In this document: positions 17,680 through 41,857 of the stretch, piece by piece
How the letters are laid out: the number at the start of each line of letters is the position of its first letter
Position numbering within the stretch: the stretch's first letter is position 1
The notes under the pieces: generated by a model
The model's input: only the letters and a program-made list of their open reading frames with translations
Told to the model about the DNA's origin: nothing
Database searches by the model: none
Position numbers and translations under genes: made by a program
Source of the DNA: a virus
DNA length: 64,000 bases
Virus record (IMG/VR): IMGVR_UViG_3300047160_025247
Direction: 5' to 3' (one strand)

Positions 17680-18255
17680 TTACTGGATCTCGCGCAGCAG
17701 CTCGCCTTCGAGGAAGAGGTGCACCACGAGGCCCGACGTGATGGTCGTGCCCGAGGCGCAGTTCTGCTCGACGAAGAAGTTCTGCACCGGGGGCAAATAT
17801 ATCGAGTGCAGCAGCGAGTAGATGTTGCGCTGCTCCGGGCGGCCGAGGTTCGCGTACACCGCGCCGGCGGTGGTGGCGATCTTCGGGGTGGCCGCCTGGG
17901 CCTCCAGACCGGTGCCGGCGGTCAGGATGAACGCCGGGATGGTCAGGTAGGTCTTCTCGCCGACGACCACGCGGTAGTACGTGCGCTGCAGGTAGATGAT
18001 GCAGTCGCTGTACAGCGCCTGGCTGGCGTAGCCGAGGGTCTGGCGGATGGCGCGGATCGAGAAGCGCTTCGGCCACGAGAGCTGGCCGGCGGTCTGCAGG
18101 TTGGTCAGCAGCGCCGAACGGTTGTTCGAGCCCTGGCTGAAGAGCTGGTTCACCACGGCCGCGGTGATGGTCACCGAGTCGTAGAGGGGCTGGTGGATGG
18201 CTTCGAGCCGGATGGAGCCCTGGCGGGCGTCCTTGACGGTGCGGAAGACGGGCAT
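17680..18255 (-). CDS. putative single-jelly-roll major capsid protein
   Basis: 191-aa all-beta pattern, QPLYDS...TNLQTAGQLSWPKRF...LPPVQNFFVE...LFLEG; strongest codon bias in the window; AAGGAA RBS; followed by a strong terminator. Confidence 0.6.
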   Translation of the reverse strand: MPVFRTVKDARQGSIRLEAIHQPLYDSVTITAAVVNQLFSQGSNNRSALLTNLQTAGQLSWPKRFSIRAIRQTLGYASQALYSDCIIYLQRTYYRVVVGEKTYLTIPAFILTAGTGLEAQAATPKIATTAGAVYANLGRPEQRNIYSLLHSIYLPPVQNFFVEQNCASGTTITSGLVVHLFLEGELLREIQ

Positions 18256-18471
18256 TGCAGTTCCTTCGCTCGGTGAGCGGGTTGCGGTGCTTGGCGAGCG
18301 AGGAAGAACTTTCCTCATCTAGCCGGGGGATGTACGGGTCATCGATAATCCAACCGCGAGAGCGGCCGGCGATGGCGCCGAAAGAAATCAGGTGGAGCCT
18401 GGTGACTCTGAAACCCAGCCGGCTTGCGCACGGCTGGGTAGCAGAGTTCACCCATCACGATGAAAGAGAGG

Positions 18472-19515
18472 TCAGTTGCCGTTGAGGTAGCTGTCCATGT
18501 ACTTCTGGCCCTCGGTCAGGTAGCCGTCGACACCGGCCATCGCGTCGTCCGGGCCGGCGAGGTCGTCGTCGTCGCCGGTGCCCTGGTAGGCGGGCGAGTC
18601 GACGTAGCCGTCCATCTGGTCGGTCATGTCGCCGGTGCCCTGGTAGGCCGGGCTGTCGACGTAGCCGCCGGTGCCCTGGTAGGCCGGGCTGTCGACGTAG
18701 CCGCTGAGGCCCGCCATGCCGTTCACCGGGCCCGCCTTGGCGGTGGCCGGGAGCGCGGCGGCGGCCGGCGCGAGCATCGGCGCCGAGGCGGTCACGCGGT
18801 TGATCAGCGAGCCGATCATGCCGGGCGAGACGATCTCGACGAGCGAGGCGACCGCGCCGCCGACCATCACGGCCTTCTTGAGGTCCGCGTTGCGGATGAA
18901 CTTGCTGGCGACGAAGCCGAGGGTGAACGGCACCATGCCGCCGAGCACGCGCTTGACGGTCGGGCTGCCCATGAACGAGCCGGCGCCGACGCGGTTCAGT
19001 AGCGGGACGATGACGCTGGCGGTCACCATGCCGCCGAGCGCGTAGGTGCCGAGCGCGCCGCCGGCGGCGAACGCGATGTGCTTGATCTTCTTCGGACCCT
19101 TGAAGGTCGAGAGGATCTCGCGAGGGGCGCGCTTCACCGCGCTCATGTAGCCGGACAGAGCCTTGATCTTCATGGGATTCTTCCTGGAGTGGCGGCGGCG
19201 CGGGTTCGTCCACGCGACCTTGTGGTATGAACGGGAGCCGGAGCGCTTGAGCGAACCGCGGTACGCGACGCCGCCGAGGCGGCCGGACCATGCGATGCCC
19301 TTGACGTGGTGCCGCTTCCCGCGGTGCTTCACCGCCGAGTGCGAGCTGATGCGGTAGCGACCGCCGCCCTTGATCTTGTGCAGACGGCCGGTGCGGTGCT
19401 TCGCGCGCCACTGCGCCTGCGTGAGGCGCTTGCGCGACGGGAATCCGCGGCGCGGCAGGGGATTGCCGAGCAGGGCCAGATGCAGGCCGGGGTTGGACAT
19501 CAGCATGACGGTCAT
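18472..19515 (-). CDS. putative virion core/membrane polyprotein (NP-delimited basic segments, hydrophobic helices, C-terminal repeats)
   Basis: Four NP motifs, Arg/Lys-rich N-terminus, hydrophobic middle, three GYVDSPAYQGTG repeats. Start uncertain (19500-19527). Confidence 0.65.
   Translation of the reverse strand: MTVMLMSNPGLHLALLGNPLPRRGFPSRKRLTQAQWRAKHRTGRLHKIKGGGRYRISSHSAVKHRGKRHHVKGIAWSGRLGGVAYRGSLKRSGSRSYHKVAWTNPRRRHSRKNPMKIKALSGYMSAVKRAPREILSTFKGPKKIKHIAFAAGGALGTYALGGMVTASVIVPLLNRVGAGSFMGSPTVKRVLGGMVPFTLGFVASKFIRNADLKKAVMVGGAVASLVEIVSPGMIGSLINRVTASAPMLAPAAAALPATAKAGPVNGMAGLSGYVDSPAYQGTGGYVDSPAYQGTGDMTDQMDGYVDSPAYQGTGDDDDLAGPDDAMAGVDGYLTEGQKYMDSYLNGN
18574..18702 (-). repeat. three near-identical 36-bp coding repeats (GYVDSPAYQGTG)
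   Basis: GCCGGTGCCCTGGTAGGC(G/C)GG(C/G)(GA/CT)GTCGACGTAGCC occurs three times; two copies are directly tandem. Confidence 0.9.
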
Positions 19516-19647
19516 CGCGGCAACCAATCCCCGAGGCGGGGAGCGCGGACACGTATGCTGCAGATCGGGTGGCGCTCTTCAGAGCGCACGCAATCGCATG
19601 CTGATAGGGCTATCCTACGACCAGAAAATTCGGTTGCAAGGCCTGGC

Positions 19648-39693: not shown

Positions 39694-40401
39694 ATGTCGG
39701 ACGAAGAGGATCTTCCGATCGGCGAGCGCGACATGCGCCAGCGGCTGTTCGGCAACGCGCCGCCGCGCTCACCGCTGGATCTGCCGGGCGTCGAGGGGCG
39801 CTCGGAGTTCCGCGACCTGTTCGAGCACCTCGGGCCGGACAGCGCCGGCGCGTTCGCGGGCCCCGGCGTGCCACAGCTGCCGCCCGAGCAGCAGGCGATC
39901 GTCGACGCGCTCTGGGCGCGCTTCGTCAAGTGGACGCGGAACACCAACTTCACCGCGTCGGAGCCCGCGCACGCGCAGCCGATGCTGTGGTCGGAGCCGA
40001 TCGACCTCTCCGACACCTACACGCTCGCCACCGCGGCAGATCCCGCCGGCGTCTACCACACGGTGCTGGAGTACACGGCGCCGAGCGGCCGATGGGCACG
40101 CATCAACGCCTACGGCTACGACGTCGATGGCGGCTTCACCTACGACGACAGCATCCTCTGGCAGATCACCGTCAACGGCCTCGCCGTCCCGTCGATGAAC
40201 GGCTTCGGCGAGCACCGTGGCACCGTCGCGATCCCGCGCCAGACCTTCATCATCGTGCCCGAGAACCAGACCGTCCGCTTCAACGTCCAACGCGCCGTCG
40301 CTGCCGGTGGCACCAACGACATCGTCATGGCGATGCAGGGCTGGTCGTGGCGCCTCCGCAAGGACTACGAGGGCACCAAAGCGTCGGTTGCGGCGTTCTA
40401 A
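39694..40401 (+). CDS. SJR-like capsid paralog with N-terminal extension
   Basis: WSEPID...ARINAYG...IIVPENQTVRFNV...AMQGW. Confidence 0.5.
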   Translation: MSDEEDLPIGERDMRQRLFGNAPPRSPLDLPGVEGRSEFRDLFEHLGPDSAGAFAGPGVPQLPPEQQAIVDALWARFVKWTRNTNFTASEPAHAQPMLWSEPIDLSDTYTLATAADPAGVYHTVLEYTAPSGRWARINAYGYDVDGGFTYDDSILWQITVNGLAVPSMNGFGEHRGTVAIPRQTFIIVPENQTVRFNVQRAVAAGGTNDIVMAMQGWSWRLRKDYEGTKASVAAF

Positions 40402-40413
40402 GGAGGCTCGCAC

Positions 40414-40941
40414 ATGCAGCCTCCTTCGCCGATCGCACCGGGTCAGCTCGGGAAGATGTTCGCGGCGTTGCAGAACAGCAACGTCCCGTTCCGTCGTCCG
40501 TCGTGGAACGATCCCTCGTGGTGGTCGCGTCCGCTCAACAGCACGATCATCATCCCGCTGAGCGGCGGCTCGGCGTGGAGCGACATCCTCACGATCCGCG
40601 GTCGCAACAACTACGGCGCCCGCGTCACCGGCTACGTCGCGACCACCTACGGCGCAGCCGACGTGGCCGATGTCGACTTCCGCTTCGTCTACAACGGCGC
40701 GTTGATCTCCACCATCGACTTCGTGTCGACCGTCGAGCGCAACCGCGAGACGCCGACGATGTTCCCGACGTTCCCGCAGAAGTTTTTCTTCCTGCTCAAC
40801 CTGCAGACCGACGTGCTCACCATCCAGGCGAAGAACAACGGCACGTATCAGCAGCTGCTGATGTGCGCCTTCTACGGCTACTACTTCGACAACAAGAACC
40901 AGGCGGAGCGCAGCACGATGGAGGGCATGACCGATGCCTAA
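40414..40941 (+). CDS. SJR-like capsid paralog
   Basis: WSRPLN...ARVTGY...CAFYGY; AAGGAGG RBS. Confidence 0.5.
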   Translation: MQPPSPIAPGQLGKMFAALQNSNVPFRRPSWNDPSWWSRPLNSTIIIPLSGGSAWSDILTIRGRNNYGARVTGYVATTYGAADVADVDFRFVYNGALISTIDFVSTVERNRETPTMFPTFPQKFFFLLNLQTDVLTIQAKNNGTYQQLLMCAFYGYYFDNKNQAERSTMEGMTDA

Positions 40942-41857
40942 CATTCCTGCGATCGATCGTCTGCAGAAAGCGGCGCGCAAGGTCTCCGACGACTTCAAGG
41001 GAAAGTTCCCATCGATCCGCGAGATCAAGCTCGACGAGGTTCGTGGTCAGCCTGCCGTGGTTGTCGTCGCGACCAACGCGACGCCGCCGCCCGGCTTCCC
41101 GACCGCGCTGCAGCTGAAGAACGCGCTCGGTCCCGACCGGCACTACAACCTCCGCATCGTGTGGCGATACGCCGCGAATCCGTCCGACGACATGATGTGG
41201 AAGGGTGGCAGCCCGGTCGAGGATCGCCTCATCCGCACGATCTCGCGCGGAGATGGGCCGTCCAACTCTCCGCTGCTGAACTCGTCGCAGAAACTTCCTC
41301 CGCAGACCCAGCCCGATGAGGGGCAGGTCTACCTGCCGATGCGCAAGCCGGCGTTCGCCGACCCTAGCTTCTGGTCGCAGCCGTTCGACGTCACCGGCAG
41401 CGTCTGCGTGCCGAACTACAACACGATCTACACCGCCTACTCCTTCCGCGTCCCGACGACGCGTATGGTCATCATCAACGGCATCAGCTACCAGTTCGAC
41501 AACAGCATCAACCTGCTGGAGCAGTTCACTGTCGAGCTGATGCGGACGACCGACAGCCTCTGCACCTTCTATGACATGAAGGCGTCGAACGCCGTCGACC
41601 CCGCCGAGCAGTATGCCTTCGCCGGCCACTACCGGCAGATGCCGACCTACTGCCGCTTCGACCACGACGAGACGATCATCGCCCGCGTGAAGGTGCTCGG
41701 CACCTACCCGTTCAGCCACACCGACCAAGATGTGCTCGGCGGCTGCTTCACGATCAACCTGCACGGCTGGATGAGCCGTCTGATTGATGATCGCGACGGA
41801 GGCGCGCGTCCGTGGGATCTCGGCGAGTTCAACAACATGGCTCTGGGTGATGTATGA
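40934..41857 (+). CDS. SJR-like capsid paralog with extra N-terminal domain
   Basis: WSQPFD...MVIINGISY...INLHGW. Confidence 0.5.
   Translation: MPNIPAIDRLQKAARKVSDDFKGKFPSIREIKLDEVRGQPAVVVVATNATPPPGFPTALQLKNALGPDRHYNLRIVWRYAANPSDDMMWKGGSPVEDRLIRTISRGDGPSNSPLLNSSQKLPPQTQPDEGQVYLPMRKPAFADPSFWSQPFDVTGSVCVPNYNTIYTAYSFRVPTTRMVIINGISYQFDNSINLLEQFTVELMRTTDSLCTFYDMKASNAVDPAEQYAFAGHYRQMPTYCRFDHDETIIARVKVLGTYPFSHTDQDVLGGCFTINLHGWMSRLIDDRDGGARPWDLGEFNNMALGDV

Follow-up and report, generated by a model that had tools for sequence, protein, structure and literature searches.

The DNA analyzed here, a stretch of 64,000 nucleotides from a virus (IMG/VR record IMGVR_UViG_3300047160_025247; hereinafter the window, with position 1 at its first letter), encodes a set of structural genes of which the best conserved are predicted to adopt the single jelly-roll (SJR) fold and most closely resemble proteins that form the capsids and vertices of small tailless viruses with a membrane. 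Given these capsid-like genes and the failure to detect any head, portal or terminase gene of tailed phages in the window or in two relatives, the virus is probably an undescribed, unusually large tailless phage. On balance, we favor the view that it belongs to an undescribed, widespread lineage of large tailless phages that have jelly-roll capsids and lack any known packaging motor. The window covers about 60% of the genome of this soil virus, which is ~106 kb in size (parent contig, 106,277 bp), and has a G+C content of ~64%, so that genes were called by the G+C content of third codon positions (GC3). All six open reading frames (ORFs) that an earlier note had singled out as candidate capsid genes were found, each at the start given there, with GC3 values of 0.80-0.92 (Table 1). 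Overall, the note is borne out in part, both in what it described and in how it interpreted the genes.

Structures were predicted with AlphaFold for two of the six proteins, and both models are single jelly rolls. The model of the 191-aa protein (40-sequence alignment, pLDDT 80) consists of eight strands with a helix between two of them, and in that of the 175-aa protein (pLDDT 89, with 68 sequences aligned after an exhaustive search), the jelly roll follows an N-terminal helix. Thus, the suggestion that all six proteins are all-beta has been borne out for these two and stands for these two only. The best matches among solved structures are capsid or penton proteins of SPV1, HHIV-2, HCIV-1 and P23-77, and chains of SH1 are matched as well. 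The layout of the 175-aa model is that of the VP9 penton, in which an N-terminal helix precedes a single barrel (PMC6414509). In the HHIV-2 structure, chains A-X and a are capsid subunits, and the first 40 residues are missing from the penton, the product of gene 22 (PMC6414509); because the gene-22 product is 174 aa long in its database record and chain b models residues 39-173, this chain is probably the penton. The similarity of the 191-aa model to the N-terminal barrel of the capsid proteins of nucleocytoplasmic large DNA viruses is weak (TM-score 0.51). The ESM Atlas provides its own model of the 167-aa protein (pTM 0.68), the neighbors of which are hypothetical proteins of viruses and, weakly, beta-sandwich domains; the family profile retrieved nothing from the PDB sequences. 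A search of all six proteins against NCBIfam yielded zero matches.

Do these proteins comprise a single expanded set of six SJR paralogs, as the earlier note had it? Both sequence motifs on which this proposal drew are indeed present, namely, PLYD...TNL..GQLSWPK.F in the proteins encoded at 17680 and 19793, and W-S-x-P-[ILF]-[DN] in those encoded at 39694, 40414 and 40934, and judging from the alignments, both exceed chance. The two PLYD proteins are clearly related (blastp E 4e-14, 30% over 204 aa; hhalign 99.8%), and the three WSxP proteins are interlinked by blastp (E 4e-4 to 1e-3), jackhmmer and hhalign (90-98%): the 307-aa protein matches the 235-aa protein with E 1e-3 and the 175-aa protein with E 4e-4 (hhalign 90-95%), and the 235-aa protein is connected by hhalign to the 175-aa family (97.6%) and to the 307-aa family (94.9%). 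However, no link between the PLYD proteins, the WSxP proteins and the 167-aa protein was detected by blastp, by jackhmmer over the genomes of the lineage, or by hhalign with shallow or deep profiles (probability <1%). Instead of one paralogous set, we have to recognize three sequence families, the last of which consists of the 167-aa protein alone. The C-terminal pattern of a proline, a strand and a glycine that had been noted as common to the six can be seen by eye in all of them and is typical of the last strands in any jelly roll. The relatives carry one or two further PLYD paralogs, and their third one (50005-50856 in the complete relative G001) is absent from the window. The orthologs of the PLYD protein that is fused to a BrnA/RHH-like domain are longer in the relatives (~350-390 aa); with this domain, the protein could anchor DNA to the shell, or it could act as a regulator of the divergent capsid operon.

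The arrangement of these genes is conserved. The order of the four-gene cluster that starts with the 167-aa gene is kept in every relative examined (L014, L015, L032, L034, G001 and G002), and a distant relative of 117 kb carries the 191-aa gene on the cluster's strand, ~2 kb upstream, so that all these genes seem to form one morphogenetic module. The 191-aa and 167-aa proteins are the best conserved among the structural proteins. The former has more than 120 metagenomic homologs (49-98% identity) on contigs of up to 115 kb and also matches seven IMG/VR records, including G001, whereas the latter is 50-69% identical to its counterparts in the relatives and has 290 homologs on contigs of up to 132 kb; for the 307-aa protein, 10 orthologs were found, on contigs of ~100 kb. 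G001 is a complete genome of 109,520 bp (CheckV 100%) with a 110-bp direct terminal repeat, and positions 277-64000 of the window are collinear with its 11.7-79 kb segment in gene order. The hundreds of metagenomic homologs come mostly from soil; more than 20 studies produced soil metagenomes that contain near-identical DNA, and among the sequencing runs checked, the virus was found in soil DNA runs only. A tblastn search of 50,697 phage records with the 191-aa and 307-aa proteins produced zero matches, and we found no description of such viruses in the literature. Most likely, this is a widespread, undescribed lineage with genomes of ~97-132 kb. The host is most likely a soil prokaryote and, specifically, a bacterium, as indicated by the enrichment of Shine-Dalgarno motifs before start codons (29% vs 9%) together with accessory genes of bacterial type (BlaI-like, BrnA-like, RMF, ThyX and GT9).

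The second pillar of the argument is what these genomes appear to lack. The search encompassed ~75 proteins compared with Pfam and PHROGs (all window ORFs of at least 300 aa and the 10 longest ORFs of G001 outside the window) and six-frame scans of the two CheckV-complete relatives, G001 and G002. In the latter two genomes, there were zero candidates for the large terminase (Terminase_6N, TerL_ATPase and Terminase_6C; PF03237, PF03354 and PF17289), the portal (Phage_portal and SPP1_portal; PF04860 and PF05133) and the HK97 capsid protein (Phage_capsid and Phage_cap_E; PF05065 and PF03864) at the sensitivity of hidden Markov models (HMMs), and control genomes were positive; in the window, no protein matched a capsid PHROG or Pfam family, a result that pertains to sequence and not to fold. 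None of the ~75 proteins matched a head, packaging, tail-tube or genuine tape-measure family. Thus, at the sensitivity of Pfam and PHROGs, the earlier note is right that terminase, portal, HK97 and tail genes are not to be found, except for receptor-binding domains similar to tail spikes and fibers at 44.9-50.4 kb. The unannotated ORFs of at least 400 aa are few and are Ala/Pro-rich, strongly basic, of low complexity or, by eye, beta-helix-like; they are 30-36% conserved or have no match in the relatives, unlike a terminase.

The FtsK/HerA (A32-like) packaging ATPase, which the earlier note had proposed to look for, likewise has zero candidates in G001 and G002 (PF01580, FtsK_SpoIIIE; PF04665, Pox_A32), and no canonical Walker A motif is conserved across the lineage besides those of the UvrD helicase and a deoxynucleoside monophosphate (dNMP) kinase-like protein. 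The latter, a 220-aa P-loop protein, has the sole canonical Walker A motif in the structural block; it was considered as a packaging ATPase and rejected, being dNMP kinase-like and not conserved in G001. Likewise considered and rejected was the 351-aa protein as a hidden HK97 capsid protein. Its gene keeps its position beside the 191-aa gene in G001, G002 and L015 (56-59% identity), but the protein is basic, has a transmembrane (TM)-like segment and acidic repeats, and is poorly modeled in the Atlas (pLDDT 0.49); there is thus no sign of an HK97 fold. With no packaging motor of either known type detected, the DNA might become condensed and be enclosed as the virion assembles, which has been proposed for SPV1; alternatively, an unrecognized enzyme might package it.

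A connection to a cultured virus comes from the 938-aa protein, residues 22-170 of which are homologous to the 'structural protein' gp34 of SSIP-1 (tblastn E 1.6e-11; jackhmmer 4.7e-56). The Asp-Cys-Asp and His-Val-Tyr motifs align between the two proteins and can be read as the catalytic residues of a protease. Beyond this domain, the other structural proteins of SSIP-1 show no significant similarity to those of the virus analyzed here. The top profile hit, gp46 (211 aa), is non-significant (E 0.019 over 134 collinear columns) and serves as a lead only. The best structural match of the 191-aa model in BFVD, I1ZBH9, is a viral protein of this same length and, as regards SSIP-1, likewise a lead.

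What kind of virion could be built from these components? The window would represent the central ~64 kb of a double-stranded DNA genome enclosed in a tailless icosahedral shell of SJR proteins, with the 191-aa and 167-aa proteins as the major capsid proteins. The three WSxP proteins would occupy vertices, serve as pentons or organize capsomers, the 175-aa protein being the penton-like one, and the fiber- and spike-like proteins would sit at the vertices. Beneath the shell, there might be an internal membrane formed with many small tail-anchored membrane proteins, in keeping with the claim of many membrane-anchored proteins, which the hydropathy analysis confirms (~20 ORFs of the structural block with a TM-like segment, often C-terminal). 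The DNA would be condensed by arginine-rich proteins, a fit for condensation rather than motor-driven packaging; several proteins have an isoelectric point (pI) above 11. Precursor proteins could be processed by the virion-associated transglutaminase-like cysteine protease.

Table 1. Structural and neighboring genes of the window
Position	Strand	Length (aa)	Assignment	Features
17680..18255	-	191	PLYD-family single jelly roll, putative major capsid protein 1	ORF 17680-18318; true start probably 18255
18472..19527	-	351	beside 191-aa gene	basic N-terminus, TM-like middle, acidic C-terminal repeats
19793..20512	+		PLYD paralog of 191-aa protein	fused to N-terminal BrnA/RHH-like domain (Pfam BrnA_antitoxin 3.7e-9)
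22477..23118	-	213	C-terminally anchored protein	C-terminal TM-like segment, then basic residues
23123..25939	-	938	N-terminal transglutaminase-like (papain-like Cys protease) domain, C-terminal TM anchor	Pfam Transglut_core 3.3e-5; TM-like segment at residue 917
26034..27326	-	430	basic protein, core candidate	pI 10.3, R+K 17%; no Pfam/PHROG match
27738..28151	-	137	Arg-rich, protamine-like; candidate DNA-condensing core protein	pI 11.3, R+K 24%, poly-Arg runs at both ends; 53-56% identity in G001, G005
28162..29832	-	556	GP88-domain protein in structural block	Pfam GP88 1.2e-12; conserved in G002, G005, L034
29838..30299	-	153	membrane candidate	three TM-like segments (hydropathy); 49-52% identity in G001, G002, L034
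30307-31002, 32156-32779, 55954-56304, 56956-57345			further C-terminally anchored proteins	
33124..33786	-	220	P-loop protein, dNMP kinase-like	phrog_139 deoxynucleoside monophosphate kinase 2.4e-20
39133..39636	+	167	putative major capsid protein 2	highly conserved; first gene of 4-gene cluster
39694..40401	+	235	WSxP family	disordered N-terminus and WSxP domain
40414..40941	+	175	WSxP-family predicted single jelly roll, penton-like	N-terminal helix
40934..41857	+	307	WSxP family	N-terminal domain and C-terminal WSxP domain
43033..44859	+	608	membrane-associated GT4 glycosyltransferase, beside capsid cluster	Pfam Glyco_transf_4 / Glycos_transf_1; 34-54% identity in all relatives
44917..50369	+		putative vertex fiber/spike module	269-aa fiber-like protein, paralogous 351/345-aa pair, 416-aa beta-helix-like protein (by eye)

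Could this be, after all, a very divergent tailed phage (Caudoviricetes), with HK97 capsid, portal and terminase proteins beyond the reach of Pfam and PHROGs and with the jelly rolls serving as cement or decoration proteins or as parts of the baseplate or tail fibers? We consider this unlikely, albeit by no means negligible, and several observations that weigh against a tailless virion would be at home in such a scenario. The absence of hallmark genes is an absence at HMM sensitivity, which very divergent HK97, portal or terminase proteins could escape. Matches of both models in AFDB are automatically named 'Phage tail protein' (E 1.9e-9 for the 175-aa model and 8.8e-7 for the 191-aa model), the ESM Atlas clusters of these families are labeled mostly 'Uroviricota', a tail-spike PHROG match and a fiber-like protein are present, and G001 has a direct terminal repeat. 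Furthermore, the folds have been predicted for two of the six proteins, that of the 167-aa protein rests on the Atlas's own model, and the contigs from RNA libraries resemble DNA carry-over and are uninformative on expression. Yet, the seven hallmark families are missing from two complete genomes under conditions where controls are positive, none of the large unannotated ORFs, odd in composition and poorly conserved, looks like a terminase, and the part of G001 outside the window contains small ORFs and replication genes, with a 1632-aa PolA fusion, a methylase and a phosphoesterase, but no head-tail module. No structural genes are more conserved than the jelly rolls, and accessory proteins would not usually be expected to show such conservation; the 'Uroviricota' labels of metagenomic contigs are automatic; and spike- and fiber-like domains are expected on the vertices of tailless phages, too.

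A different departure from the icosahedral tailless phage that we favor would be a non-icosahedral or enveloped virion, whether pleomorphic, spindle-like or a nucleocapsid within an envelope, in which the jelly rolls are surface spikes or matrix proteins. Jelly rolls do function as spikes and lectins, and the many membrane proteins, the very basic nucleoprotein-like proteins and the failure to detect a packaging ATPase are all compatible with this possibility. It nevertheless appears quite improbable: in structure, the closest matches are to proteins that form the shells and pentons of icosahedral viruses, a fixed order of five to six conserved jelly-roll genes suits an icosahedral shell with distinct hexon-position and vertex proteins, and SSIP-1, the sole cultured virus with a common domain in the structural module, is icosahedral. 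Even less plausible, in our opinion, is a member of the sphaerolipovirus type (Helvetiavirae/Halopanivirales) with an enlarged genome, the analogy from which the earlier note had proceeded. The folds match chains of such viruses, and there is more than one SJR capsid candidate along with genes for membrane proteins, but the failure to find an FtsK/A32-type packaging ATPase, by family or by a conserved Walker A motif, argues that the virus is not of this type. Moreover, the ATPases of P23-77 and HHIV-2 retrieved nothing by phmmer, the deep family profiles gave hhalign probabilities below 1% against P23-77 VP16, VP17 and VP11 and HHIV-2 VP4, VP7, penton and VP16, and the two major capsid candidates are non-adjacent in the window.

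Several further features of the window deserve mention. Its replication and nucleotide metabolism genes encode UvrD-like and SNF2 helicases, ThyX, a Cas4-like nuclease, a serine recombinase, and HNH and other homing endonucleases; sugar-modification genes are present as well, a long block of ORFans on both strands spans ~17-58 kb, and in the window as a whole, ARAGORN recognized neither a tRNA nor a tmRNA. A homing endonuclease gene (16659-17567, +; phrog_4645 6e-36) adjoins the most conserved capsid-candidate gene, and a weak LAGLIDADG match in the relative L015 (6455-7696) likewise lies beside that gene; the HNH genes are at 736-1383 and 61498-61938. The serine recombinase match (phrog_95 3.7e-34) falls in the C-terminal part of a 514-aa ORF (9937-11561, +) that overlaps a high-GC3 ORF (9937-10566) in another frame, so the gene boundaries are approximate. 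A ribosome modulation factor (RMF) domain (Pfam 1.3e-7), unusual in a phage, was recognized in a 306-aa protein (11712-12632, +); G001 encodes an RMF-like protein, too (84143-84886). Directly after the jelly-roll cluster, there are two tandem Cys/Thr-rich paralogs (41854-43060, +; 64% identity over ~200 aa, blastp 2e-36) that are partly conserved in the relatives. In the putative fiber/spike module, residues 88-173 of the protein encoded at 46255 match a tail spike family (phrog_29706 1.6e-9), and this protein and the one encoded at 47312 are paralogs (E 3e-92). The G+C content drops to ~55% over 46-50 kb, and the low-G+C stretch (46000-51000), which comprises the two paralogous spike-like genes and the beta-helix-like protein and is shared for the most part by just one examined relative, looks like an exchangeable host-recognition cassette.

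Five very basic proteins (18472-19527, 26034-27326, 27738-28151, 29838-30299 and 55276-55899) contain recurrent Asn-Pro sites, 3-5 per protein, with hydrophobic residues before and basic residues after, and the transglutaminase-like Cys protease is encoded nearby (23123-25939); this combination would fit precursor processing. Two soil libraries described as 'metatranscriptomic, size fractionation' (runs X25 and X26) yielded contigs of 5.7-13 kb at a depth of ~33-37 that match window positions 17600-30500 and come from a relative ~90% identical over the 191-aa gene. These contigs span many genes and are therefore probably DNA from a size fraction of particles and not transcripts.

What would follow if the favored scenario is correct? 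To our knowledge, every known prokaryotic virus with a genome above ~50 kb is a tailed phage that has an HK97 capsid, and the known viruses with SJR capsids have genomes of 16-44 kb. A common soil lineage with genomes of ~100-130 kb would then lift the size limit of the prokaryotic jelly-roll architecture two- to three-fold, and current classifiers would appear to assign such genomes to tailed phages by default. It would also be the second case, after SPV1, of a large double-stranded DNA genome enclosed without a recognizable packaging ATPase, with a bearing on the question of how packaging motors became associated with jelly-roll capsids in evolution. Far more tentatively, and with more doubt than conviction, one can imagine that this is the first sighting of a lineage of high rank, from order to realm, of tailless membrane-containing soil phages of this size class that make large icosahedral shells out of several unrelated SJR proteins, enclose protamine-condensed DNA and have neither a terminase nor an FtsK motor. 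In practical terms, the 191-aa and 167-aa proteins readily lend themselves as markers, both to detect the lineage in viromes and to seek the host.

How does this virus compare with the known systems? It resembles tailed phages in genome size, the terminal repeat of one relative, PolA, SNF2 and UvrD helicases, ThyX, homing endonucleases, and spike- and fiber-like receptor-binding domains, and differs from them in that an HK97 capsid, portal, terminase, tail tube and tape-measure gene were not detected. With regard to the double jelly-roll capsid proteins of Bamfordvirae, the two proteins modeled here, of 191 and 175 aa, each have one barrel. In Halopanivirales (HHIV-2, HCIV-1, SH1 and P23-77), which have genomes of 16-31 kb, an FtsK/HerA packaging ATPase is encoded next to two adjacent capsid genes; the present virus has no detectable ATPase and no sequence similarity to them, and its genome is more than three times larger. 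SPV1 and FLiP also lack a recognizable packaging ATPase, and SPV1 encodes very basic proteins, too. In SPV1-like viruses (Portogloboviridae), a basic protein condenses the genome, a role that the Arg-rich proteins might play here, and a resemblance of the capsid candidates to SPV1 VP4/VP10 is likewise only possible. However, SPV1, with a genome of ~20 kb, infects a hyperthermophilic archaeon, whereas the virus described here shares no sequence similarity with it, is ~106 kb in size, apparently infects bacteria in soil, and has three unrelated jelly-roll families with at least six genes. This leaves SSIP-1 as the sole cultured virus with a sequence link, through the transglutaminase-like domain of gp34. 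Its Walker A-containing structural protein, gp40, has no counterpart here. SSIP-1 is tailless, with an internal membrane and an icosahedral (T=49) capsid made of two types of capsid proteins that are possibly SJR, and infects a halophile; with 44 kb, it has the largest genome among such phages, and the virus analyzed here, with ~106 kb, exceeds it 2.4-fold, in agreement with the suggestion in the earlier note of a genome much larger than those of the known SJR-capsid viruses.

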